This document shows, piece by piece, positions 5,438-57,746 of a DNA stretch of 64,000 bases; position 1 is the first letter of the stretch, and each line of letters opens with the position of its first letter. The notes beneath the pieces were generated by a model. That model was given only the letters and a program-made list of their open reading frames with translations. It made no database searches and had not been told where the DNA came from. Origin of the DNA: Escherichia phage vB_EcoM_E9.1; sequence record PP886230, one strand, 5' to 3'. Made by a program: the position numbers and the translations under genes.

Positions 5438-8400
5438 TTACTTAACTAATAATATATTTTTAATATCATTACCACTAACTTGTAGACTATCAGTGTATAC
5501 TGAAAGATCTATAGTGTAACTATTTTGTGTGTAACGTTTTAACATATCATAATTACCTAAATTAATTCCATTGAAAGAATATGTAGTATTAAGTTTAAAA
5601 TCATGTTCTGCACTATACATTACACCACGGAGTAAATTATTTGCATTTCTAACTTCAACTTTTTCATATCCAATCGATATAATATCATTCATGTTTGCGG
5701 CTGAACCGGATAAAACATTATTTCTAATACTATAAGGACTTATTGATTTAGGTTGAGAAACATAGGTTGTATTTTCTTCACTAATGGTTGTGATGTTAGT
5801 AACAGTACCACCAACAACACCGATATACATACCGTCAACCATTGGGAATCCATAAACCCATATCCCTTCATTATTTCTAAACGGTTGAATAACACTTGAA
5901 TCATATTCGATAACGTTGATTTCTAAACTATCAGTCATTTTAGTTCTTGCCAATTCACTAAGAACTCCCGCACCCGTAATTGGTAAGTTATAACCGTTAT
6001 CGATAGTAATTCCATCAACATCAAATATTTCATTAGAGATTATCCAAACGTCAACGTCATCTGGTGTTATTCCGTCATTGTACTTACCACCATTTAAAGT
6101 AGTATCGTAGAAAACATCATAATTAATTACATCAATGGTGTAATTTCTATTTTGTTCATACAATTTAATACCATTCTTGACAAATTCAGGGTCAGCAAAT
6201 GTTCTAACACGAACAATGTTCAATGCTAGAGGCTGTACTGGCTCATTTTGTTGTGCAAGAGTGATGTTATCATAACGGAGAACTGCACCAGTACTCTCAT
6301 CAATCAATTCAATCGTTTCCTTACCTGTATTTCTTACAGTGAATAGGATCGGAGTTGTATTGTTTTTGATGTTAGATACACGCAAGATTGTTTCCCATGT
6401 GTGATTTTGATATCTCACAAAATCTTCACCATCAGGAGTGAAAATCATCACCTTATCACCATCAGATAGGTCATTGTCAACTATTTCTGCTTCAGTTAAG
6501 CTATTAATAGATCTCACACGATAGAAATATTTTTCATCAAACTTCGATGTTGTTTTATTAATATCATTTTCAATCTTAGCATATGAAGGAATACTTACAA
6601 TTGCTTCTGTATGTTTATATGGATTGATAATTGCCATACCTTCAGTTTGATATCTGCTGTTATCACGTAATTGTACAAGAGATACATTGTCAAACCCATA
6701 TCCATCAACTGTAAATCTAATTTGACCTACATCACGCCCAGAAGGGTTTATGTCAGATATATCCACAATATAAGGATCAACTTCATCATCTTTAACTTCC
6801 CATTTTATTGAAGAAGTTTGAGATTCCAATGCTAGGTTATCAAATGCATTCATATCATTGAAGTACTTAGCTTCAGTAATACTATCAAGTATATATTGAT
6901 AATCAGAATACATTGGATTATTTTGATCTAGTGGTAAATCATCAAGATTTATTTCAGCTAGTTCAACCATTTCACCATTTGTGATAAAATAATCTTCCAT
7001 GAAATCATCAATACTTTGTTCATCAGGTATACTTTGATATACACCGTTAACATTTAAGTAAACATATTTTCGTGGAATCATTGTAATTGCATAGATATCA
7101 ATTGGGGTCTTACTAAGAATCTCTTCAGCTTTTTCGTACTTATCAGTAGCGTCTTTGTCGAATAACCCTCTCATACCTGCTAATACGTGAATAGCATCAG
7201 TATAGAAACGGGTATCACCACCTACTTCATCATAACGATAAACATATACACCATACTCAACTTCAAGTTTAACTTTTACTTCATAGTCTGATGCGTCAGG
7301 ATTTTTATCTTTAATTAATGAAATGTATTTTTGATACAATTCACTGCTTATTTCAAAATATCCATAGTTATAATCATTACTAGAAGAAAAGCCTAATGGA
7401 AGTCTAGTACTAGGATTGTCATTATAAGTAAGTCCACTAAATCCACATCCAACTTCATCGTGAATTTTCTCATCACTTATATCTTTATAAAGTTTCAAAC
7501 GGTTTGCCAATGTGTTATACTGAACATATTGTCTAAGGTCAGTAAACATATCGTTATGCGTTGATTCTTTATAAACACGTTCCAATGTAGCAGTGAATTC
7601 ATCAGTTGCTTCTAAATCTTCCGCATGGTCTTTATACCACTGGTTAACGCCATATGCTGTTCCTAGTGTTACATCCAATTCTGGATAGTAGATTTGCATT
7701 TGATAAGCAATAAGAAGATCGAAAGTTTCTTCACTATATTCTGGGAAAGAATATATATAACGTTGTAATTCATAGTTACTAACAGCATCCTTTTCATTGG
7801 ATTGATATTTGTTATTAACACTTACTAATTCATTTATGCTTGCCAAATCTTCATTTGGTTTACACTGAATATTATCATAATGCATAATAATATCAATTTC
7901 TTGGAATCTTCTATTTGGTGTAACGAAATCACTTGGTAGTGAACCTACCTGTTCCCATTTTTGGGTAATTTCATTAAATTGAGCGTACTCATAATCCCAA
8001 ATATCTTTTTCAGTTTTGATCCAATAACCATCAACGAAAATATATCCATTAGGATCTAAATCATTACATAGACCTTTTATTAAATCATCATCAGATGTCT
8101 TTTGCTCTATTTGTGAACGAATTTTAGTTCTATAAGGTTTAACTTCTTCAAAATATTCAACAATTTGATTAATCAAATTATCGTTTGAATAGTTTTGAAC
8201 TAATGATTGTTCCAAACCAACAATATAGATATATGATGTTTTAAATACCCAATCCACAACACTTTGTTCAACATGTACATATTTGACCATATCAAAAACA
8301 ATTTCGCTTTGATGTAAATCGAAAGAATTTTTGAGTAAAGCTAGTGCTTTACGAACGTTGATTTCACGATTGCTTAGTGAACCATTATCATTATGAACAC

Positions 8401-11400
8401 TATAATCTGCGTAAAGCATATCATTGAGTTCAACTGTACTGTTTTCACGACCAATCGCTTTCCAATAAATTGAATCGCGTGATTGTGATTTAATATACAA
8501 TGTCCAAATGTTTTCACTATCGGTAACTCTGATAATATCGCCAACTTGGTAGTTTTTAGTATTAGCATCTTCTAAGCTTGACTCTTGAGTATAAGTCGTG
8601 TTACTATCATATCCAACATCATACCAATCAGCATATGACCAGTACTGAGTCATGTCTAATGAGGTTCCTAGTGATTCAACATAATCAGATTGTTTAATCA
8701 TTTTATGTTGTCCCTCACCTTTGTTTTCTAACGTTATAGTAACAACACTACCCGCGTTTGCTGGACTATTCATTAACTGAATATATCCATTTTCGTCGAA
8801 GTGAATAAAATAAACAGCACTAGAAGTTAATGGATTTGGTAGATATCCACTAGTACTTAAAATAACAGCGTCATTTTCTTTAAATTTATCACTTTCAACT
8901 GCAATAACTAATTCATTATTGTAAGACAACACACGGAAAGAAACTTCATTAGGGTTAACTTCAGTGGTTTTAACATTAAACACATCTTCCATAACAACAC
9001 TATTAGTGGTTATGTTTTGTGATCTATAATAATTATTAGCACTTTCTACAAAGTTTCTACGAGCTTCTATAACATTTTGGAACCAAGTTTTGTTTGATCC
9101 TAAACCGTTATCAACATCTGGATATAATAAATTAATCACAGAACCTGATTCAGTAGTTTCTTGTCCAATTAAAGAATTCCACATTGAATCCCAAATTAGA
9201 GGGTTAAAGTTATAACTATCACCTTCCTTGCATAGTTGGTACTGATCATGTTTAACAACTTCAGTATTATCCATGTAATAAGAAATTGTCAAAATACTAG
9301 TATCATCATTAACTTTAAACTGCATATTACTAAGAATAAACGAGTTTTCATTGATTGGTGCAAACCAAGGAATGTTTAACTGTGATGGATCTTTAATAAT
9401 ACGAGCAATATCAGTACATGATTTTGTTCTGGTATGTAGTGGTGGTACATAAATGGTATCACGTACCCAGAAGTAGTATTTTGTAACATAAGTATCAGTT
9501 GAGCTATCATATTCCAAAAATGTACTATAGTTATCTTCAAGAGCGGTTCCGCTTGGTAGATACATAGTATTATTTTTGTTTTTCTTAGCAACGTCTTTAC
9601 AATACTTATCCCAATTATATGGCTCTACTGGAGAACAAACCCATTCCAACACATCAATGGTACTATGTGGTAATAAACGACCCCAGTTATAACGTTTGTA
9701 TTCATTAGTTGCATCAATATCAACGTTTCCGTCTGCATCATAAATTGCACGTGTATAATCCAAATAAAATGCAGTACTTGTATTCCACCATACTTGACCA
9801 ACTTTATCAGCACCCCAAGCCTGAATTAATTCACCATTGCTATTATATTGTGCTGGGTCTATTGGTGACGTATAAGTTACGTTTTGCATTGCTGCACCAG
9901 GAATAACCCCATTGATAGGGTCATACACATTTAGATATAATGCAGTAATGTTAGTACGTTCATCATATGTAGTTGGACGGTCAAAAAAAGTACTTTGTGG
10001 TGCTTTGTAACTATACTTTTTGTCAATATATGCTTGACGCTCTTCTGCACTGGCAAAACGTGATACATAACGATACAAACGTGGACGTGTATCTGGATCA
10101 GTAAATTCAATATCAATAGAAGTGTCAAATGGAACTACCATAACTTTAGGATCAGAACCAGCAGTATAATATTGACTTTCTACTGTTAAAGTATCTGGCA
10201 TAAAGTTAGTTTCATCAACAAAATAATAATAATCACCATCTTCAAGTGGTACATTATCAGTTAAAGTTACTTTACAAAATTGTTCAGCATACACATCGGT
10301 ATTTTCAATAGGTGTTATAGAAACCATTTGTACATTAGTATCAACTAATTCAAAAATATTCCATAAACCATTTCCGTCTTTAAACATCCAAACAGATTCA
10401 GGGTTTTCACCTTTACCATTAGTGTAAGTTATACGGTCATTATATGCAGTACTGAAATCTTTTGTAGTGTAAGATACTTCATCCAATGTTACTGGACCAA
10501 TATCTGGAAGTTGAATGTTTTCACTTCTTCCACTACGCATCGGGAATGAGAACTTACCATTTGGACGTGTAATCCAACGAGGATCTTTACCTTGTTCGCC
10601 GAAGTATACAATATTGTTTCCATTTCCATTTGAAGTAGCGTTTACATCAAAAGATACCATTTGTGGTTGTTGTTTAAATTGGTCATTGATTAGTTTAAAT
10701 TGAAGGTTTTTCTTACCATCAATATTACCATATGTACCAATTTTAAATGCCCATTCTTGTAATGCTTTATATTCATCAGTGTCATATGATTTAGAAACAC
10801 GAAGTACACGTTCTAAAACTTGGTTAGTACCTTTATCGTGAATGAATCCTTTATAGAAATCAACACGACTAACATCACTACTAATCATACGCTGTAGATA
10901 ATCACGAGATTGATAACCAATCAAATGGTTTGACAACTCTTGTAATTGTACATCACTTACTGGAGTTTCACTATCATAATAATGTTGGAAATCCGACACT
11001 AATTTTTCAAATGATGGTAGTGTTCCAGCTTCCAAGATAATAAATCCAGGAGCTTGTAGGCGACCAGTCCATGAACCAGTAATATATCCATACATTTTAA
11101 TTAGTTCTTGAATAGAACCATATGTTGGCTGATAAATGTAATCACCAAAAATAGTTTTATCATCAAAAATAACAGCATGTTCATATGAACACAAACTTAA
11201 ACGAATCAATGCAATGCGTTTATTAGATTCTAAAGTTCTAACAGTGAAGATATTTCCAATACGAGAAGTTTCAATTTCATATTGGCGAATACCTTGGTTA
11301 TTATCATCAAGTAATGACCATACACCACCATTATTTTGCGTAATAGATTGTACTGAACCAAAGTCTGCCCCAAATTTAGCGTTTGCAGAACTTGGGGTAC

Positions 11401-25971: not shown

Positions 25972-26017
25972 CTTTTTGATTCTCCATAATAAGGGAACAT
26001 TTGATGTATTTATACGT

Positions 26018-26045
26018 GGGACAAACTGCTTTTTGGTGCTATAAT
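26018..26045 (+). promoter_or_regulatory. early sigma70-like promoter (GGGACA-N16-TGcTATAAT)
   Basis: GGGACA 26018-26023, 16-nt spacer, TGc-TATAAT ending 26045; upstream of the gp55-like gene. Confidence 0.5.
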
Positions 26046-27968: not shown

Positions 27969-30116
27969 ATGCTAAACATTACACGTATATCTATGAGGAA
28001 CTTCTTTTCATTTGGTAATGCACCACAATCAATTGATTTGAATGGTTCCGACATTTCATTAGTACTGGGTCAAAATAATGATGCAGTTATTGAAGGTGGT
28101 GACAGCACCGGACGTCGAAATGGTGTCGGGAAAAGTGCTATTATTCAAGGATTAGTTTTTGGATTATTTGGTAAAAGTATTGGTAATGATATTAAAATTC
28201 CGAACCTAGTCAATAAAACTAATGGCAAAAATTGTGAAGTAGTTGTAGAGTTTGAAAAAGATGGTGTACAATATCTGGTTGAACGTGGGAGAAGTCCCAC
28301 GTATTTCAATTTTGTTACTTTAGGTAAAGATAATAAAATTGAAGATGAATCAAGGGGAGAAAAGAAAGACACACAAGAAGATTTGAATGAAATTCTTGGT
28401 ATATCTCAATTATTATTTGAACATATTGTAGTACTGAATGCTAACGTTGAACCTTTCTTAGCTTTATCCACACAAAAACAACGTGATATGATAGAAGAAC
28501 TTCTTGGAATAACACAGTTGACGGAAAAAGCTGAAATGCTAAAGGAGATGTATAAGGATACTAAACGTTTAGCCGAACAAGAAAAGTTCAAAAATGAAAC
28601 TGTAGCTGCAAGTAATGAACGTATTCAAAAAAGTATTGAGACACTACAAGAACAGGCAAACCAGTTTGAAATTGATAAAAATAATAGAGTATCTAAGTTA
28701 AATGAAGAGTTGAATATATATAAAACTTTAGACTTTAATGACCTCTATGAAGCTGCTGATATAAAAGAGAAAGCTCTTATTCATAACGCAAAGCGTGGGG
28801 AAATCGAACGCCGTGTACAAGAGTTGGCTTTAAAATTTGATGCATATGACCGTGAACTTGAAAGATCTAAAAGAGCATTAAATCTAAGCATTGATAAGCT
28901 AAAAACTATTGATATTAGTGCAGAATTGGAAAATCATAATGAGTTGGAGATATGGAAACAGTTAGAGGGTATTCTAAAAGAGAATAATAACCAAAAACGT
29001 TTCAAAGAACAAAAACTAAACTCACTAAAAATAGCTTTAAAAGGATATGAATGTTCAATTAATGCTGAAATTGACAAATTATCAACAGTTGAAAACAGCA
29101 AATGTCCACTTTGTATGTCTGAATTAGAACATAACGAACATACTTCTTCAATTAAAGACAAAATCCAAAGTACTATTAATGATCTTCAAGCTAAAATTGA
29201 TAGTTCTTCTTCTGAAATTGAAACATTACTTCAAGAAATTGATAGTATTGAGATTTTTGATATGCCACCTAAGCCTGTGACATATTATAATACACTTTCA
29301 GAAGCACAAATGCATGAACATAAGCTTCAAGAATTGGTCAGAAAGAGTGAAGAAGAACAAATAAACATCTATGCAAATGAACTTATGTCATCATATGATG
29401 AACTTAACTCATATGAACTAATGGAAGTTCCAGATACATTAAACAAATATGAAGTTAAAGAGTTAGAAATGACTGTAAATTCATTATCACAGCAATTAGA
29501 TCGTGAATTGAAGACTACTAACACATTTATTAGCCAAATTAATACCCTGAAGACTGATTCTTTAGTACCAATCGATTATAGCGACTATAATAATCTTGAT
29601 AAAATGTCAAATCACCAAGATTTCTTGGTTAAATTACTTTTAAACAAGGATTCTTATGTCCGTAAACGTATTATTGAGCAAAATATCTCATATTTGAATA
29701 CACGACTTCAGTACTATATCGATATGTGCGGTTCTGAGCATAATGTTGTGTTTTTGAATGATTTGAGTGTTGAAATTGAGAAGAGTGGACAGTACTTTGA
29801 CTATAAACAGCTTAGTAGAGGTGAGCGTACAAGGGTAAACATCGCATTATCTTGTGCTTTCCGTGATACATATGAGTCATTATACCAAAGTATTAATATT
29901 CTTATCATTGATGAGATGATTGACCAAGGTCTTGACTCAAGTGGTGTTCTACGTGTGTGGTCTATCTTCCAAGATATGGCTGCTGTACGTGGTAAGAACG
30001 TTTATGCTATTTCCCACAGAGAAGAGTTACTATCTAAGACTGAAAAAATCCTCAAAGTTGTTAAAGAGGACGGTTTCAGTACTGTTGAATATGCAACCCT
30101 TGACGATGTTTTCTAA
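27969..30116 (+). CDS. 46: gp46 Rad50/SbcC-like ATPase
   Basis: Walker A RRNGVGKSAI, long central coiled-coil-like region, Walker B ILIIDEMIDQGLD; directly follows the gp47-like gene. Confidence 0.85.
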   Translation: MLNITRISMRNFFSFGNAPQSIDLNGSDISLVLGQNNDAVIEGGDSTGRRNGVGKSAIIQGLVFGLFGKSIGNDIKIPNLVNKTNGKNCEVVVEFEKDGVQYLVERGRSPTYFNFVTLGKDNKIEDESRGEKKDTQEDLNEILGISQLLFEHIVVLNANVEPFLALSTQKQRDMIEELLGITQLTEKAEMLKEMYKDTKRLAEQEKFKNETVAASNERIQKSIETLQEQANQFEIDKNNRVSKLNEELNIYKTLDFNDLYEAADIKEKALIHNAKRGEIERRVQELALKFDAYDRELERSKRALNLSIDKLKTIDISAELENHNELEIWKQLEGILKENNNQKRFKEQKLNSLKIALKGYECSINAEIDKLSTVENSKCPLCMSELEHNEHTSSIKDKIQSTINDLQAKIDSSSSEIETLLQEIDSIEIFDMPPKPVTYYNTLSEAQMHEHKLQELVRKSEEEQINIYANELMSSYDELNSYELMEVPDTLNKYEVKELEMTVNSLSQQLDRELKTTNTFISQINTLKTDSLVPIDYSDYNNLDKMSNHQDFLVKLLLNKDSYVRKRIIEQNISYLNTRLQYYIDMCGSEHNVVFLNDLSVEIEKSGQYFDYKQLSRGERTRVNIALSCAFRDTYESLYQSINILIIDEMIDQGLDSSGVLRVWSIFQDMAAVRGKNVYAISHREELLSKTEKILKVVKEDGFSTVEYATLDDVF

Positions 30117-30127
30117 TTAAAGATAAA

Positions 30128-30150
30128 GGGAGCCTTAGCTCCCTTTTTTT
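30128..30150 (+). terminator. intrinsic terminator
   Basis: GGGAGC-ctta-GCTCCC followed by T7. Confidence 0.6.
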
Positions 30151-30626
30151 ATATCAACCATATTTAATTTACCGTCCTTAATCAGCTTTCTAGCTTGCTT
30201 TACACGAGCAGTAGTGTTACTACCAGGGACAACTCCTAACCCTTCCAGAATCGCGTTTTGCTGTGTTGCTGGAAGCCTTTTAAACTTATTAACATCCACA
30301 GTTAGTGCAGTGTGATGTATAACTTGTTCATCGTCAGGAATGCTGTTATTACGCTCTAAGTAATCAGCAAGATTTCTGAGTACCTCATATAATGGTTTAT
30401 CAGTTAAGTGCTTCATATATCGATTGAAGCTGTTTTGTACCTTTCCTTCCCAAGCATTGACTTCATTTTGAAGAACTTGTCTACAATGTTGGTTACCATA
30501 GTGGTAGTGATCCAGTACTGGTTTAGTTATTGGTTCTTTAATTATAGGATCTATTCCATTTTGTTTCTTTAGCAATTCGTTTCGATAGTTTGCAGCATCC
30601 TTACTATCTTTTAATCTTTTTTTCAT
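30135..30626 (-). CDS. endonuclease VII (gp49)-like His-Me finger protein lacking the four zinc-ligand cysteines
   Basis: LDHYH...RQVLQNEVNAWEGKVQNSFNRY aligns with the T4 endo VII LDHDH...RGLLCNLCNAAEGQMKHKFNRSG region as recalled. Minus-strand TATAAATA at plus coordinates 30657-30664, about 30 nt upstream of the ATG. Confidence 0.5.
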   Translation of the reverse strand: MKKRLKDSKDAANYRNELLKKQNGIDPIIKEPITKPVLDHYHYGNQHCRQVLQNEVNAWEGKVQNSFNRYMKHLTDKPLYEVLRNLADYLERNNSIPDDEQVIHHTALTVDVNKFKRLPATQQNAILEGLGVVPGSNTTARVKQARKLIKDGKLNMVDIKKGS

Positions 30627-30718
30627 AATTCCTCACCAAACTATTTGTTATCAAAATATTTATAGATTAGTTATTTGCAATATTTTAAGTACTTAATGAA
30701 TATTTTTATAAAAATAGT

Positions 30719-30746
30719 GAGACAACTTTAAAGTTTGTGCTATAAT
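30719..30746 (+). promoter_or_regulatory. early sigma70-like promoter (GAGACA-N16-TGcTATAAT) driving a noncoding region
   Basis: GAGACA 30719-30724, 16-nt spacer, TGc-TATAAT 30738-30746; no ORF downstream for about 450 nt. Confidence 0.55.
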
Positions 30747-30752
30747 GTTTGT

Positions 30753-31207
30753 TGTAGTAATGACAATCCTGTTGAATGCAGAAATGCATATAAATTAGAA
30801 CCTGATCCTATCGAAAATGTAGATGGCAGATGAGCAGTTCAACAGTGCGATGAGCAAAAGAAACCCGTTAGATGTGGGCATAGTTTGAACCCCTCACGGC
30901 AATGCGGCTCAATAAAGAACTCCGATAAGCATACAGAGAGTTCCTAGATAGACATATAAGGATCGCACCTTACCAGATTTGCTAAGGGAGTTTATTAAGT
31001 GATTTTAATAAACAGCCTGAAGTTTGATTGTATAGACTTTCAGGTGAGTGTCAGGATGATTAAGACTGACGACCGTTGCACATGACTGCGATAGAGAGAA
31101 ACAGAGCAACCCGCTTTCGTTCTTAATATATTTTTAAGAAATTCGCAATACAATAAATGCTGAAACCATCAGCGTCAAGAAATAGAGACTTCATTGTCTC
31201 TTTTTTA
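30753..31207 (+). ncRNA. candidate structured noncoding RNA, about 450 nt, class unknown
   Basis: No ORF longer than about 28 codons on either strand; visibly more G+C than the flanks; several hairpins including a GAAA tetraloop (30776-30789); bounded by a promoter and an intrinsic terminator. Confidence 0.45.
31184..31207 (+). terminator. intrinsic terminator ending the candidate RNA
   Basis: AGAGAC-ttcatt-GTCTCT followed by T-run 31201-31206; a second GC hairpin CCCC-tgc-GGGG lies at 31214-31235. Confidence 0.65.
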
Positions 31208-31425
31208 TTGTCTTCATTCCCCTGCGGGGGGATGAAAATGTCCTCAACAAATCCCGTCAAGTATTAAATCTTTTAAAGTTCTTTATAATTAATTTAATTA
31301 AATGAATATGAGTTACGTAGTAACGAATATTCTTCAGCTAACGAATGAAATGAGTTAGATGAATCCAATAATATTAAAATTAATCCTTTCATAATTCAAT
31401 TCAAATAATTCTGTAGTTTAAAACC

Positions 31426-31451
31426 AAAAAAAACCAGCAACAATGTGCTGG
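31426..31451 (-). terminator. intrinsic terminator for the minus-strand operon
   Basis: On the minus strand CCAGCA-loop-TGCTGG followed by U8 (plus-strand A8 at 31426-31433). Confidence 0.6.
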
Positions 31452-31462
31452 CTATATGAAAA

Positions 31463-31672
31463 TTAGTGCTTCTCGTTTTGTTTTTTAATTTTTTTATTAA
31501 AAGACTTAACTAATAAGTCTCTATCTATTAATGGCATATTAAGGAGTGTTCCATAGTCAATGTTATCCATATATACAGAACATTCCATTAGTGCATTTTT
31601 GATTTCTGACTTATTCAGTTCTATCTCCTTCAGTACTTCTTGTATTTCTTCAGGAGATGACTGGAGAAGCAT
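31463..31672 (-). CDS. hypothetical protein, 69 aa
   Basis: Track ORF; stop/start overlap with the upstream 278-aa gene. Confidence 0.45.
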   Translation of the reverse strand: MLLQSSPEEIQEVLKEIELNKSEIKNALMECSVYMDNIDYGTLLNMPLIDRDLLVKSFNKKIKKQNEKH

Positions 31673-32508
31673 TACTCGAAAAAATGACTAGGATCATATT
31701 TTAGTCCATCAATTTCCCATTGATGATTACATCCATCACATTCTACTTCCATACTATGAGATACACCAATTTCAAGTACTTCATCCATTTTTTCACGAAT
31801 TAGTTTAAGTACTCCCTTCGATTGTTGTCCAAGCCATTCATTAATAAATTCTTTTTCAACTACTTCATCACCATCTGGTGTTATAATTTTTGCAATAACT
31901 CCACCAATCATATCGAAGTTAAGTTGAGCCATGTTTTCAAATACTTCAGAAAATATTTTTACTTTTTCATCTTTATCAATATCAGCAGTTTCAAGAAACT
32001 TAGTCTTCTGCTGCTCACTGAACATGCGTTCAGCAAACGATGAATATTCTTTCCATGTCAGTGGTCTAAATTCTAAACGTAGTCCATTATCTAAATCAAT
32101 TGATGGGATTTCTTCAAATGCTTGTGCAGTTTCAAGAAGATATGATAGATTACGTTCAAATCGACCTTCTTTTTCACATTCAGGACATACAACGTTAATA
32201 TCATATGTTTCTTCTTTAGAAGCAACTTTAATAGCAATAAGAAGCATTTCAACGTCATTTACATACAACTCATCAGCGTCAATTACATTAGGAACACAGT
32301 TTTCAATAACACGGGATACTGCATCTCCGTTTAGTAACATATCGGGGGTATTAAGTGTCATTTCATCACGTGCACTACGTGCACAAACTCCACATTTGAC
32401 ACCTTTTGGACCTAGAACTCCTTCTTTATAAGGAATAACGCCGTTTGTAACTAACTTAGTACTGATCTCTTCAATTTTAGTGTACTTAGCAAGTGGATTC
32501 ATAGCCAT
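31672..32508 (-). CDS. hypothetical zinc-binding protein with three CxxC pairs, 278 aa
   Basis: CGVC, CPEC and CDGC motifs; divergent from the head operon. Confidence 0.55.
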   Translation of the reverse strand: MAMNPLAKYTKIEEISTKLVTNGVIPYKEGVLGPKGVKCGVCARSARDEMTLNTPDMLLNGDAVSRVIENCVPNVIDADELYVNDVEMLLIAIKVASKEETYDINVVCPECEKEGRFERNLSYLLETAQAFEEIPSIDLDNGLRLEFRPLTWKEYSSFAERMFSEQQKTKFLETADIDKDEKVKIFSEVFENMAQLNFDMIGGVIAKIITPDGDEVVEKEFINEWLGQQSKGVLKLIREKMDEVLEIGVSHSMEVECDGCNHQWEIDGLKYDPSHFFE

Positions 32509-37865: not shown

Positions 37866-38489
37866 ATGAGTAGTATGATTCGTGAATGGTCTTCATTCAA
37901 TGATTCTAAAGTTGTTTTGGAACATCGTGATAATGGATTTGGTGGGCGTGACTGCTATCTTCGTGGTATTGCTATTCAAGCCGACCAACGAAATTTGAAC
38001 GAGAGAATTTACCCTTTATCTGAAATTACAAGGGCAGTAAATAACATGAACCAGCGTTTAGCTAAAGGTGAAAGCATTCTTGTTGAATGTGACCATCCAG
38101 AAACACTAACTATTAACCTAGACCGAGTAGCAGCAATGATTACTAAGGTTTGGATGGAAGGTGCTAATGGTATGGCAGAAATCAAACTACTTGATACTGC
38201 ACATGGTCAAAATATCCGTAAAATGCTAGAGGCTGGTGTAAAACTTGGTGTAAGTTCTCGCGGTTCCGGTAACGTTGATTATAATGGAATAGTTTCTGAT
38301 TTTGAAATTATCACTATTGATATTGTTGCTCAACCTAGTGCTCCAGAAGCATACCCAACAGCGGTATTTGAATCTCTGATGAGTAAGTACGGATCACCTT
38401 GTAATAGTTCTAAAAAAATCACTGAATCTAAAAAAGTAAATAATTTAGATTCTGAAATATACGATTTTTTCAAGAAATTAAAAGGTTAA
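37866..38489 (+). CDS. 21: prohead protease, gp21-like
   Basis: NERIYP, ECDHPE, KLGVSSRGSGNV and IVAQPSAPEAY match the T4 gp21 pattern as recalled. Confidence 0.7.
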   Translation: MSSMIREWSSFNDSKVVLEHRDNGFGGRDCYLRGIAIQADQRNLNERIYPLSEITRAVNNMNQRLAKGESILVECDHPETLTINLDRVAAMITKVWMEGANGMAEIKLLDTAHGQNIRKMLEAGVKLGVSSRGSGNVDYNGIVSDFEIITIDIVAQPSAPEAYPTAVFESLMSKYGSPCNSSKKITESKKVNNLDSEIYDFFKKLKG

Positions 38490-44380: not shown

Positions 44381-44896
44381 ATGCAACTAACAAATTTTAA
44401 GATGTATGAAAAAGAAGGTGGTAATCCTAATTCTTTGTATATGATGTCCGATGAAGGTATGGATTGGTATGAATCTCGTGAATTGTTTGACATTAATAAA
44501 GCAAAATTTATGTATGATATTAACGGTTTAATTGTTTCAGCATCATATAACATTTATGATCTAGTACCTTTAGGTTTTAGTGTTTCTGAAATTGAATATG
44601 ATGGTGATATTAACAAACTTTATGGTATGGTTTACGATGGAAATACTATTCATGACTATATTGAAACTAAAGAAGAAAAAATTGAACGCCTAAAAAATGA
44701 ATTATCTAATTTGAAATACATTGCAATTCAAGAACTTGGACACTTAAAAACGGCTATGGATCTTGAGTTAGCAACTGATGAAGAAGCTGTATTGTTTGTG
44801 AAATTGAAAGATTATGTAACGCAATTGAATTCAATCAAACCAGCAGACATGATCAAGAAAACATTTTCATTTCCAGTTAAACCGGAAAAAAAATGA
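44381..44896 (+). CDS. tail fibre assembly chaperone (Tfa-like)
   Basis: C-terminal AMDLELATDEEAVLFVKLKDYVTQLNSIK aligns with the lambda Tfa [29 protein letters not shown] region as recalled; ATG 44381 has an AAGGAA SD. Confidence 0.75.
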   Translation: MQLTNFKMYEKEGGNPNSLYMMSDEGMDWYESRELFDINKAKFMYDINGLIVSASYNIYDLVPLGFSVSEIEYDGDINKLYGMVYDGNTIHDYIETKEEKIERLKNELSNLKYIAIQELGHLKTAMDLELATDEEAVLFVKLKDYVTQLNSIKPADMIKKTFSFPVKPEKK

Positions 44897-44925
44897 GACA
44901 ACACGTAAAGACGTGATACAATTAA

Positions 44926-52422: not shown

Positions 52423-57746
<5,324 letters not shown>

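Follow-up and report, generated by a model that had tools for sequence, protein, structure and literature searches.

It is seldom that a new large RNA with a complex fold comes to light, and every such discovery to date (RNase P, group I and II introns, tmRNA, OLE, GOLLD/ROOL) has opened a field. GOLLD and ROOL (RF01998 and RF03087) are phage-borne RNAs with transcription signals of their own, and extend over several hundred nucleotides with many helices, pseudoknots and many conserved unpaired bases. The jumbo-phage RNA analyzed here was similar to them in all these respects. However, it showed no sequence or structure match to their Rfam models, and in contrast to them it occurs as four to five diverged, dispersed copies and only in jumbo myoviruses of the Enterobacterales type. 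Like ColE1 RNA II, it is a promoter-driven, folded, non-coding transcript of about 500 nt with a G-rich segment (in the phage family, an invariant G6 run beside a C run) and an A+T-rich region at its far end. RNA II has to be transcribed in cis from a fixed site on the DNA, and the same would hold for the phage RNA if its copies are origins. However, the two are not homologous, and the jumbo-phage RNA often has a terminator ahead of the G run. RNA II, whose 3' part hybridises to the template at a G-rich/C-rich site with RNase H processing and which has an antisense regulator (RNA I) from the opposite strand, is not known to need pseudoknots. The origin transcripts of phage T4 (oriF and oriG, and oriE with its early promoter) are also promoter-driven and non-coding, and are made at about five sites per genome in a related lineage (PMC3016281). 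The minimal oriF/oriG unit is about 100 bp, in which a middle-mode promoter is directly followed by an A+T-rich unwinding element; the T4 origins share no motif, and R-loop formation needs no specific RNA sequence (PMC3016281). In contrast, 450 nt of conserved tertiary structure follow the promoter in the jumbo-phage family, and the oriF/oriG layout was not found there, since about 510 nt separate the promoter from the start of the A+T-rich stretch (G+C 0.20-0.35). PA5oct, a related jumbo phage, produces the ORF-less RNAs ncRNA001-004 of 236-619 nt, two of which are very abundant throughout infection, the abundant RNAs accounting for about 5% of the phage reads each (PMC7318152). No similarity between ncRNA001 or ncRNA002 and the present family was detected by nhmmer --max or by both covariance models with filters off. 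The packaging RNA of phi29 (pRNA) is likewise a phage-encoded folded RNA that acts as RNA, it multimerises through covarying loop-loop pairs, and one jumbo-phage copy lies near the portal gene. However, pRNA is 120-174 nt long and single-copy, no Rfam pRNA match was obtained, and the jumbo-phage promoter is not of the late type.

The window analyzed was a stretch of 64,000 nt from Escherichia phage vB_EcoM_E9.1 (PP886230), and all features below are on its + strand unless stated otherwise. Judged from sequence signals and comparison with relatives, the segment 30718-31262 is a non-coding RNA gene. The initial annotation had placed a structured RNA in the largest ORF-free stretch of the window, and every sequence feature that it named was found where it had been placed. 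The stretch (30627-31462) measured 836 nt with ORFs of at least 50 or at least 60 aa, while the runner-up was 167 nt. The RNA body, described as richer in G+C than its surroundings, had a G+C content of 0.36-0.45 over 30725-31175 in comparison with 0.22-0.23 in each flank. Folding compared with shuffled sequences gave z = -3.0 for the + strand and z = -2.0 for the - strand, and 6 terminator-like sites were observed in 30000-32000 against 0.7 expected. The - strand has one promoter-like site, at 31054-31027. Small hypothetical ORFs are drawn across the locus in several GenBank records, and in the UE-S1 record part of it is annotated merely as repeat_region.

The locus had been called an orphan, which proved incorrect. 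Escherichia phage PBECO4 (Asteriusvirus, 348 kb) carries four diverged paralogs, the window copy and copies B, C, and D, and the four loci map to about 38, 94, 195, and 305 kb of its genome; in most related genera the number is five per genome. About 100 homologs were found, all from RaK2-like jumbo phages, with genomes of about 350 kb, or from metagenomic sequences related to them. Each copy occupies a separate ORF-free gap, with a promoter of the form TGRRACA-N13-TGnTATAAT ahead of it. The copies are co-oriented within each genome and 52-110 kb apart; for 5 random points on 357 kb, a smallest gap of at least 52 kb has a chance of about 0.006, which counts as effectively one observation. Each paralog keeps a syntenic position across genera, and PBECO4 copy C and the RaK2 copy both adjoin dam methylase and cytidyltransferase genes. 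Co-oriented genes follow copies B, C, and D within 42-173 nt, whereas downstream of the window copy and its orthologs no gene is co-oriented, and these copies run head-on into converging genes and their terminator. The downstream genes differed from copy to copy, which does not fit a riboswitch or a gene-specific cis-regulator: one starts like an ADP-ribosylglycohydrolase, others encode unrelated hypothetical proteins, and some copies have no such gene. No gene was consistently adjacent to the RNA copies. In 200 kb of PBECO4, the GC skew, examined as an origin marker, followed gene orientation and showed no break at the copies. There is gene conversion among the PBECO4 paralogs, so that arguments based on their divergence are blurred.

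The transcription signals were then compared among the copies. A scan recovered the promoter proposed at 30719-30746 as GAGACA-N16-TATAAT with TG ahead of the -10; compared with its relatives, and with its extended -10, it reads TGAGACA-N13-TGCTATAAT and covers 30718-30746. The same architecture was present upstream of copies B, C, and D and most homologs: TGnTAyArT occurred in 60 of 76 distinct upstream regions, 56 of which had GRRAY at -35 as well. This promoter class, TGRRAC(A/G)-N13-TGnTATAAT, is phage-specific and corresponds to 'Promoter 1' of phage CBB, located mostly ahead of DNA-synthesis genes according to the authors of the CBB study. Transcription would start at about 30751-30754, and conservation starts a few nt after the -10. 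The proposed intrinsic terminator was also found by the scan, as AGAGAC-UUCAUU-GUCUCU (stem 31184-31201) followed by U6 up to 31207. It combines a G+C-containing hairpin and a U run with covariation of the stem: in the 18 of 35 paralogs that carry it, each pair was kept in 16-18 of the 18 sequences, with 2-4 pair types. Among 81 distinct copies, at least 24 have a terminator after the folded body, as does the window copy, but copies C and D and many homologs lack it. The terminator-ended RNA would therefore, from these signals, span 30752-31207 and be about 455 nt long, or about 510 nt on read-through. The promoter-to-terminator unit of the initial annotation stood, but the conserved element continues past the terminator to about 31262. 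The next gene downstream of the copies often has its own predicted promoter of the RpoD type, for example CBB Porf_524.

The comparison of homologs supports a two-domain fold with many invariant unpaired junction bases; 16 helices were tested, and three of these are pseudoknots. Alignment folding revealed massive compensatory change across the approximately 100 homologs, with compensatory changes in 65 of the 80 pairs tested overall. Covariation exceeded that in both shuffled and slid controls, and the slid controls collapsed. In 50 sequences outside model building, pairing was kept at 94.7% and 96.1%, with 26 and 15 new pair types. A structure-blind scan recovered the same helices and found no inter-domain helix with strong covariation. 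G·U and U·G pairs numbered 298 in comparison with 91 A·C and C·A pairs (3.3:1), which identifies the + strand as the RNA. The peripheral helices were variable and carried modular inserts, whereas the core was fixed, and the invariant bases were mostly in junctions and loops. The core of the earlier proposal, a dedicated structured RNA with its own promoter and terminator, is therefore supported by covariation together with the transcription signals.

The 5' domain (30761-30991) is described by covariance model R1, which contains helices H1-H8, ends in an invariant AAGGGAG, matched 96 of 100 loci, and gave 222 bits for the window copy. Over its 38 pairs, 96.4% of cells were paired, compared with 76.3% in shuffles, and 533 cells were changed on both sides, compared with 126. 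The long-range helix H1 (30769-30845) joins CUGUUGAA (30769-30776) to UUCAACAG (30838-30845); it was 97.4% paired, showed changes on both sides in 8 of 8 pairs, and was also recovered by the unbiased scan. H1 encloses a hairpin at 30777-30788 with the GAAA tetraloop (previously placed at 30776-30789) and H2 (30802-30829), which consists of CUG/CAG (30802-04/30827-29) and CUAUC/GAUGG (30808-12/30822-26), was 90-92% paired with both-side changes in 7 of 8 pairs, and has the conserved loop GAAAAUGUA. A K-turn in H2 was considered and rejected, as tandem G·A pairs are missing. H3 (30834-30848), the first pseudoknot, pairs GCA (30834-36) with UGC (30846-48) and closes a loop whose bases are the 3' strand of H1; it was 100% paired in 83 distinct sequences, and 2 of its 3 pairs covaried (UA/AU/CG and AU/UA/GC). 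H4 (30851-30911; UGAGC/GCUCA, 30851-55/30907-11), 100% paired with 3 covarying pairs, contains H5 (30865-30899; CCGU/ACGG, 30865-68/30896-99), which was also 100% paired, and the variable hairpin H6 (30871-30895), which differs in length and sequence among paralogs. Hairpin H7 (GAACUC/GAGUUC, 30917-30943) showed both-side changes in 6 of 6 pairs. Its pair C30920-G30940 is common to all four PBECO4 paralogs and mostly G-C in other genomes. Co-evolution with a trans factor was considered for the states shared in PBECO4 (30920/30940, 31167, 31178, and 31254), but gene conversion explains them better, as H7 is identical in copies A and B. Hairpin H8 (UAAGG/CCUUA, 30957-30972) was 97.6% paired with 2 covarying pairs. 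A possible closing helix, 30767-70/30985-88, showed one-sided variation only. Between the domains, the window sequence contains a putative variable hairpin, H9 (30990-31013), with the complementary arms GUUUAUUAA and UUAAUAAAC; other paralogs have an insert of 40-70 nt at this place.

The 3' domain (31013-31179), covariance model R2, comprises H10, H11, H13, Hx, H14, and H15 and two pseudoknots. The model matched 100 of 100 loci and gave 135 bits for the window copy. Its 42 pairs were paired in 95.2% of cells (69.1% in shuffles), with 904 cells changed on both sides (250 in shuffles) and a covariation score of 0.716 (0.205 in shuffles, at most 0.13 in slid controls); none of 500 shuffles reached the observed value for any of these three measures. 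The CCTGAA/TTCAGG stem noted earlier corresponds to H10 (CCUGAAG/UUUCAGG, 31016-31044), which was 97.7% paired, changed on both sides in 9 of 9 model pairs, and has the conserved loop UUGAUUGUAUAGA. Within this loop, AUUGUAU (31027-33) pairs with AUACAAU (31148-54) to form pseudoknot 3 (31027-31154), which was 99.3% paired, changed on both sides in 7 of 7 pairs, and was found by the unbiased scan as well. The two basal pairs of hairpin H11 (GUCAG/CUGAC, 31050-31070) were 100% paired and covarying. Pseudoknot 2 (H12, 31075-31110) pairs GUUGC (31075-79) with GCAAC (31106-10); it was 100% paired with 3 of 5 pairs covarying, its 3' strand lies inside the Hx loop, and it is flanked by the invariant CGACCGUUG and AACCCGC. 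H13 (31087-31147; UGCGA/UCGCA, 31087-91/31143-47; 99% paired, 5 of 5 covarying) encloses Hx (31094-31118; GAGAG/CUUUC, 31094-98/31114-18; 100% paired, 4 of 5 covarying) and H14 (31120-31140; UUCUUAA/UUAAGAA, 31120-26/31134-40; 90% paired, 3 of 4 covarying) in a three-way junction at 31087-31147. H14 is the TTCTTAA/TTAAGAA element of the initial annotation, and its GCTGA/TCAGC hairpin is H15, present in the window at 31159-31173 as GCUGA/UCAGC and followed, up to 31179, by the first copy of a GUCAAG motif; CGUCA is invariant here. Only 73.5% of the H15 cells were paired in the model alignment, because the register differs between paralog groups.

A further conserved module lies beyond the terminator at 31213-31262. 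It was analyzed from the MAFFT alignment alone, outside the R1 and R2 models. It consists of a GC hairpin, UUCAUUCCCC-UGCG-GGGGGAUGAA (31213-31236), which had been noticed earlier at nearly the same position, followed by AAAUGUCCUCAACAAAUCCC and a second GUCAAG (31256-61). The module was present in 80 of 81 distinct downstream regions, and GGGGGA and CAAA.C.CGUCA within it were invariant or nearly so. In the hairpin, C to U changes in the 5' arm stand opposite a fixed G run, so that G·U pairing is kept on the + strand. In the 264 kb of PBECO4 examined, the module occurred only at the four RNA copies. A direct repeat, CGUCA(A/G), flanks the segment containing the terminator and the hairpin, and the 150 nt downstream of the module have a G+C content of 0.20-0.35. 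No pairing partner with consistent covariation was found for the 3' tail or for AGAUGAG, and the two CGUCAG motifs are too conserved for testing an alternative pairing with the 5' strand of H15. A promoter role for the module was rejected, as the spacing to a TATAAT-like element is at least 21 nt and the module is kept where no gene follows. A mini-ORF at 31233-31267 (SD-like GGGGGG and AUG) was also rejected, as its frame is broken by indels among paralogs.

No conserved reading frame was found among 49 homologs, in which the longest ORFs were 31-85 aa, and column variability by phase (0.22/0.255/0.26) showed no 3-nt periodicity. The RNA had been said to belong to no recognised class, and searches agreed with this. 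The 4227 models of Rfam 15, which include RNase P, tmRNA, group I and II introns, 6S, HEARO, GOLLD, ROOL, OLE, raiA, pRNA, ribozymes, and riboswitches, gave no match at the gathering score in the whole window. At E up to 10, only terminator- or promoter-driven sRNA matches far below threshold appeared, with tmRNA at 5.5 bits, and across 15 homologous loci at E up to 5-10 no family recurred over the RNA. ARAGORN found no tRNA or tmRNA gene in the window. Likenesses to known catalytic RNAs, noticed by eye, were examined and rejected: the RNase P CR-IV/V-like strings ACAGAGCAACCCGCUU have no P4 partner and no covariance-model match; the hammerhead elements CUGAUGA and GAAA are in the wrong order, and only (G/A)(A/U)UGAG is conserved; AGAAACA, resembling loop B of the hairpin ribozyme, is replaced by GGAAACC in diverged paralogs; and HDV-like and group I P3-P7-P8 topologies misfit in strand order or junction lengths. 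The literature examined contains no description of the family. The RNA is a new RNA class.

Our best guess on function, held tentatively and at slightly less than even chances, is that the RNA is an abundant, trans-acting folded RNA that serves as a scaffold or decoy. Host sigma-70 RNA polymerase would recognize the extended -10 and transcribe each copy once the DNA is in the cell, and with four to five strong genes the RNA would become abundant. Folding during synthesis would give it a compact, Rho-resistant tertiary structure. Its 3' end would be set by the terminator, where the transcript is released, or, in copies without a terminator, by the 3' GC hairpin. Acting in trans, the folded molecule would then serve as a stoichiometric scaffold or decoy for a phage or host protein bound through the invariant single-stranded junctions, and would not work by antisense pairing, coding, or regulation of one particular neighbouring gene. 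Such a role is favoured by the location of the invariant bases mostly in junctions and loops and by the variable periphery, with its modular inserts, around a fixed core. The copies also front unrelated genes, often with their own predicted promoters; no co-oriented gene lies downstream of the window copy or its orthologs, and the terminator placed after the folded body in the window copy and many others points the same way. The abundant ORF-less RNAs of PA5oct, although not homologous, count in its favour as well. However, the conserved 3' module beyond the terminator is not obviously needed by a released RNA, and synteny and even spacing hint that position matters, which would favour a cis role.

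An alternative that takes position into account, although we consider it unlikely, is that each copy marks a replication origin and its transcript primes leading-strand synthesis. A persistent RNA-DNA hybrid would form at the 3' end of the transcript or beyond it, close to the invariant G6 run and the A+T-rich stretch that follows, and the folded upstream body would control the hybrid or recruit a helicase loader, like the upstream structure of ColE1 RNA II. This would suit four to five co-oriented, syntenic copies 52-110 kb apart on a 350-kb genome, the promoter class found in CBB mainly ahead of DNA-synthesis genes, and the G run with 150 nt of low G+C content beyond it. The distance of about 500 nt from promoter to module is also similar to the length of ColE1 RNA II (about 555 nt). 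T4 uses at least five origins fired by promoter-driven R-loops (PMC3016281), and RaK2-like phages encode T4-like recombination genes (gp46/47-like, endonuclease VII). However, a terminator separates the RNA body from the G run in the window copy and many others, so most transcripts would be released before the proposed hybrid site. T4 origins of about 100 bp, with no shared motif and no specific R-loop sequence, leave three covarying pseudoknots unexplained; the PBECO4 GC skew tracks gene orientation without a break at the copies, and the even spacing is effectively a single observation. A different cis role, which we judge very unlikely, is that the nascent RNA binds its own polymerase, like HK022 put or rrn antitermination, and makes it resistant to terminators and Rho for long downstream gene arrays. 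The copies are dispersed along 350 kb and co-oriented with most downstream genes, many have a terminator directly after the RNA and a conserved RNA-level module beyond it, and copies B, C, and D are placed as leaders of co-oriented units. However, the window copy and its orthologs do not have this layout, as converging genes and their terminator lie ahead of them; the downstream genes have their own predicted RpoD-type promoters, and the RNA is far longer than known antiterminator RNAs (70-120 nt). The boxA likeness of CCUCAACAAAUC was rejected as weak, since the UCUUUA core is missing.

That the RNA is an RNA-only machine, either catalytic as a ribozyme or able to assemble itself into a particle as ROOL and GOLLD do in their nanocages, possibly with co-assembly of the paralogs, appears distinctly unlikely. 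Large size, three pseudoknots, and invariant junction bases are features of ribozymes and ornate RNAs, and GNRA tetraloops cap the 5' hairpin in several paralogs, with GAAA in the window copy and at loci L012 and L018. The H10-loop pairing could equally be intermolecular, because covariation is unable to separate the two cases. GOLLD and ROOL are phage-associated and reported to form homo-oligomers (10.1101/2024.12.08.627333). In contrast, no Rfam ribozyme, GOLLD, or ROOL match was obtained, not even a weak one; no conserved cleavage-site architecture was recognized, and the likenesses to the hammerhead core and to loop B of the hairpin ribozyme fail on order or conservation. The high gene dosage speaks against catalysis and for a stoichiometric function, with which assembly still fits. 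The more specific proposal that the four to five paralogs are subunits or isoforms of a new jumbo-phage RNA machine, catalytic or self-assembling, possibly a hetero-oligomer, and built by the phage in the course of infection, is in our estimate improbable. That the locus is not an RNA gene, but a repeated DNA element (a protein-binding site or mobile-element remnant) or a decayed protein gene, is strongly disfavoured and would be a great surprise. The dispersed repeat family, the direct repeat around the terminator and hairpin, the repeat_region of UE-S1, and the hypothetical ORFs in GenBank records could be read in this way, but such an element would not be expected to show compensatory changes in 65 of 80 pairs and strand-specific G·U pairing, nor a promoter conserved at a fixed position with no conserved frame.

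The family provides an RNA of about 0.5 kb with three pseudoknots and unusually strong comparative support. Its arrangement is also unusual, as each 350-kb genome holds four to five copies that have diverged and are dispersed but co-oriented. It also corrects the annotation of several deposited genomes, in which hypothetical proteins are placed over the locus. The phages that carry it are culturable and infect E. coli, Klebsiella, Salmonella, Serratia, Erwinia, Cronobacter, Yersinia, Pectobacterium, and Xanthomonas, so immediate genetic study is possible. If the copies are origins, they would explain how replication starts in jumbo relatives of T4. If the RNA is a decoy, a scaffold, or an RNA-only particle, it would add a layer so far unseen to phage-host conflict or bring a new RNA architecture, and if the paralogs form an RNA machine, they would be a new entry on the very short list of large natural RNA machines.

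The window corresponded to about 272-336 kb of the 348-kb genome of Escherichia phage PBECO4 (Asteriusvirus), in reverse-complement orientation, and the RNA locus was 100% identical in PBECO4 and 99.4-100% identical in 121Q, phAPEC6, G17, and other genomes. The locus is flanked by the endonuclease VII gene (30135-30626, - strand) and by a 69-aa ORF with the baseplate hub gene (31463-32508, - strand). As stated in the initial annotation, the gap between them (30627-31462) was the largest ORF-free stretch in the window, with 836 nt lacking ORFs of at least 50-60 aa, versus 167 nt for the runner-up. The G+C content was 0.36-0.45 within the element in comparison with 0.22 in either flank, and a scan gave six terminator-like sites around the locus (0.7 expected). 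The promoter proposed at 30719-30746 scored 10 of 12 matches with a TG ahead of the -10, the proposed intrinsic terminator was recovered as a stem at 31184-31201 followed by a U run, and all of the hairpins listed earlier were found in the window sequence. The + strand folded better than its shuffles (z = -3.0; - strand, z = -2.0). A perfect 9-bp hairpin with A and T runs on either side (30125-30146), where the gp46-like and endonuclease VII genes converge, is a predicted two-way terminator. At 31432-31453, a second hairpin (8 bp, with T8 on the - strand) closes the hub/69-aa operon, facing the RNA gene.

The fold of the RNA was analyzed with two covariance models, one per domain (5', window 30761-30991; 3', 31013-31179), seeded with 35 non-redundant copies of 67% mean identity; about 100 loci were then aligned. 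The 3' domain contained 42 pairs in eight helices, with 95.2% of cells paired (69.1% when shuffled), 904 cells changed on both sides (250 shuffled), and a covariation score of 0.716 (0.205 shuffled; best slid control, 0.133). The 5' domain contained 38 pairs in eight helices, with 96.4% of cells paired (76.3% shuffled), 533 cells changed on both sides (126 shuffled), and a score of 0.497 (0.140 shuffled; best slid control, 0.076). None of 500 shuffles reached the observed score in either domain. The pseudoknots H3 x H1 and H12 x Hx were 100% paired, with two of three and three of five pairs covarying, and the one between the H10 loop and 31148-54 was 99.3% paired, with all seven pairs covarying. 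In 50 non-seed sequences pairing was 94.7% and 96.1% for the two domains, with 26 and 15 new pair types, and a structure-blind scan recovered the same helices and no other of comparable strength. G·U and U·G cells outnumbered A·C and C·A cells (298 versus 91), and therefore the + strand is the folded strand. These data show that the RNA exists as a selected fold, in line with the structured RNA first proposed.

No Rfam family matched the locus and no tRNA or tmRNA was found, in agreement with the initial annotation, which had recognized no RNA class. Neither a conserved reading frame nor codon periodicity was seen among the homologs. Several deposited genomes (PQ390715, PQ330092, OR699181-3/188, OR699282, and others) carry two to five small 'hypothetical proteins' annotated over 30740-31260; these are probably mis-calls, since the pairs covary and no frame is conserved. 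Part of the locus is labelled 'repeat_region' in the UE-S1 record. The publications examined on PBECO4, 121Q, GAP32, RaK2, CBB, phAPEC6, and fEgEco12 did not mention the RNA, and searches of the literature on large phage RNAs gave nothing on the family. The family is not described in a bulk catalogue of candidate structured RNAs from viruses (10,006 entries; PMC10690425), which might contain fragments of it. Two abundant transcripts published for the related jumbo phage PA5oct, ncRNA001 and ncRNA002, had no similarity to the family (PA5oct 7-24 kb), and therefore related jumbo phages appear to carry unrelated large ORF-less transcripts.

Behind the promoter (30718-30746, + strand), the 5' domain consists of H1, which encloses a GNRA-capped hairpin and H2, the H3 pseudoknot, H4 and H5 around the variable H6, and H7 and H8, followed by an invariant AAGGGAG. 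The variable hairpin H9 links it to the 3' domain, which comprises H10, H11, a three-way junction (H13/Hx/H14), two pseudoknots, and H15. Between this domain and the terminator (31184-31207, + strand) lies the first GUCAAG motif; the terminator was missing from PBECO4 copies C and D and from many homologs. Last comes the 3' module, in which a 10-bp GC hairpin that carries an invariant G run is followed by CAAAUCCCGUCAAG; the module ends at about 31262, was kept in 80 of 81 distinct copies, and occurred nowhere in PBECO4 outside the RNA copies (264 kb covered). C-to-U changes facing the fixed G run indicate that this module pairs at the RNA level. A more distant metagenomic subfamily (contigs OEQO/OERT: L183 ~8,090-8,560 and L184 ~1,010-1,520, both - strand, L212, and L219) kept the 3' domain and the G-run module with a remodelled 5' domain, and had CGAAG in place of both GUCAG motifs, changed together. 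The RNA of L219 lies behind a sigma-factor-like ORF, just as PBECO4 copy D lies behind a sigma factor gene. A ~30-nt module, (G)UACAAUnnAGnUnCGUCyAAAAUU, was repeatedly found inserted in hairpin tips, at H6, H9, or H14 depending on the paralog (copy B piece L002 ~38,060-38,100, - strand; L011 ~6,590-6,640 and L012 ~1,360-1,420, + strand), and looks like either a peripheral element that can move or a 3D or protein-binding motif that recurs.

The locus had been called an orphan, which did not hold. BLAST placed it at 4-5 sites per genome. In PBECO4 (NC_027364.1) the window copy lies at ~304.9-305.5 kb, and a search of the 200 kb beyond the window gave three further copies on the same strand, at ~38.0-38.6, 93.7-94.2, and 195.0-195.5 kb, all in annotated gene gaps. 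The four paralogs shared 68% column identity over ~520 nt of alignment, and each had the TGnTATAAT promoter. Copies A and B had the same H7, loop included (30917-30943), and copy C a nearly identical one, and C-G at 30920/30940 was common to all four (mostly G-C in other genomes); this points to gene conversion among the dispersed paralogs. Pattern scans of IMG/VR showed five copies each in Serratia phage BF (30/93/175/259/335 kb), Pectobacterium phage CBB (32/94/174/258/336 kb), Cronobacter phage GAP32 (35/99/178/262/341 kb), and several uncultured 355-371-kb phages. RaK2 had a full copy inside a 740-nt gene gap, beside the methylase and cytidyltransferase genes that also adjoin PBECO4 copy C. 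About 70 further members came from a metagenome scan. A genome-collection scan gave 20 matches, about the chance expectation, of which two were true members: a 2.8-kb MAG contig and a 299-kb contig of an Enterobacteriaceae assembly (WJYB01000004.1, 'Enterobacteriaceae bacterium RIT714'), the latter probably the genome of a jumbo phage that the isolate carried or that was assembled together with it.

All copies had promoters that fitted TGRRAC(A/G)-N13-TGnTATAAT, the class named 'Promoter 1' in CBB, where it stands mainly ahead of DNA-synthesis genes (PMC5259590). Host sigma-70 polymerase should be able to use the RNA promoter unaided, judging from its consensus extended -10. Same-class promoters (TGRGACA-N13-TGnTAyAAT, + strand) were found in the window at 26017-26045, a short way upstream of the genes for the gp55-like sigma factor and the gp47/gp46-like proteins, at 44894-44922, and at 57718-57746. 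The class also occurred at many protein genes elsewhere in PBECO4, with about a dozen more such promoters in the other 200 kb. A motif conserved ~90-130 nt downstream of many copies, AAAATTC-TTGACA-(5-bp hairpin)-GGCAAAT (L011 ~6,850-6,880; CBB 336,865-336,902), was predicted by the CBB authors to be an RpoD-type promoter of the next gene, e.g. Porf_524 (PMC5259590); the stem of its spacer hairpin covaries, which is unusual for a promoter.

The function of the RNA we infer from these features. A DNA-only or coding element is effectively excluded. We tentatively favor an abundant, trans-acting, folded RNA that would serve as a stoichiometric scaffold or decoy for a protein partner, because most invariant bases lie in junctions and loops, the peripheral helices are free to vary and tolerate inserts, copies precede unrelated genes or none, many copies have a terminator after the body, and gene dosage is high. 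The main rival, rather unlikely in our estimate, is a transcript that primes a replication origin by forming an R-loop. It would account for the promoter class, for the G-run module followed by A+T-rich DNA, and for the synteny and arrangement of the copies, which were co-oriented and dispersed within every genome and rather evenly spaced (gaps of 52-110 kb; 56, 101, 109, and 81 kb in PBECO4). Five points placed at random on 357 kb would all lie at least 52 kb apart with P ~0.006, which counts as effectively one observation because the arrangement is syntenic across genera. Origin priming also suits the biology of T4, whose origins, at least five in number, are fired by promoter-driven R-loops (PMC3016281). 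However, the T4 origins need no specific RNA sequence (PMC3016281), and the terminator precedes the G run. A ribozyme or self-assembling RNA is a doubtful reading, and an antiterminator acting in cis an improbable one.

The finding is real and more interesting than the initial annotation reported: the large pseudoknotted RNAs of these culturable jumbo phages form a new multi-copy class with deep conservation.
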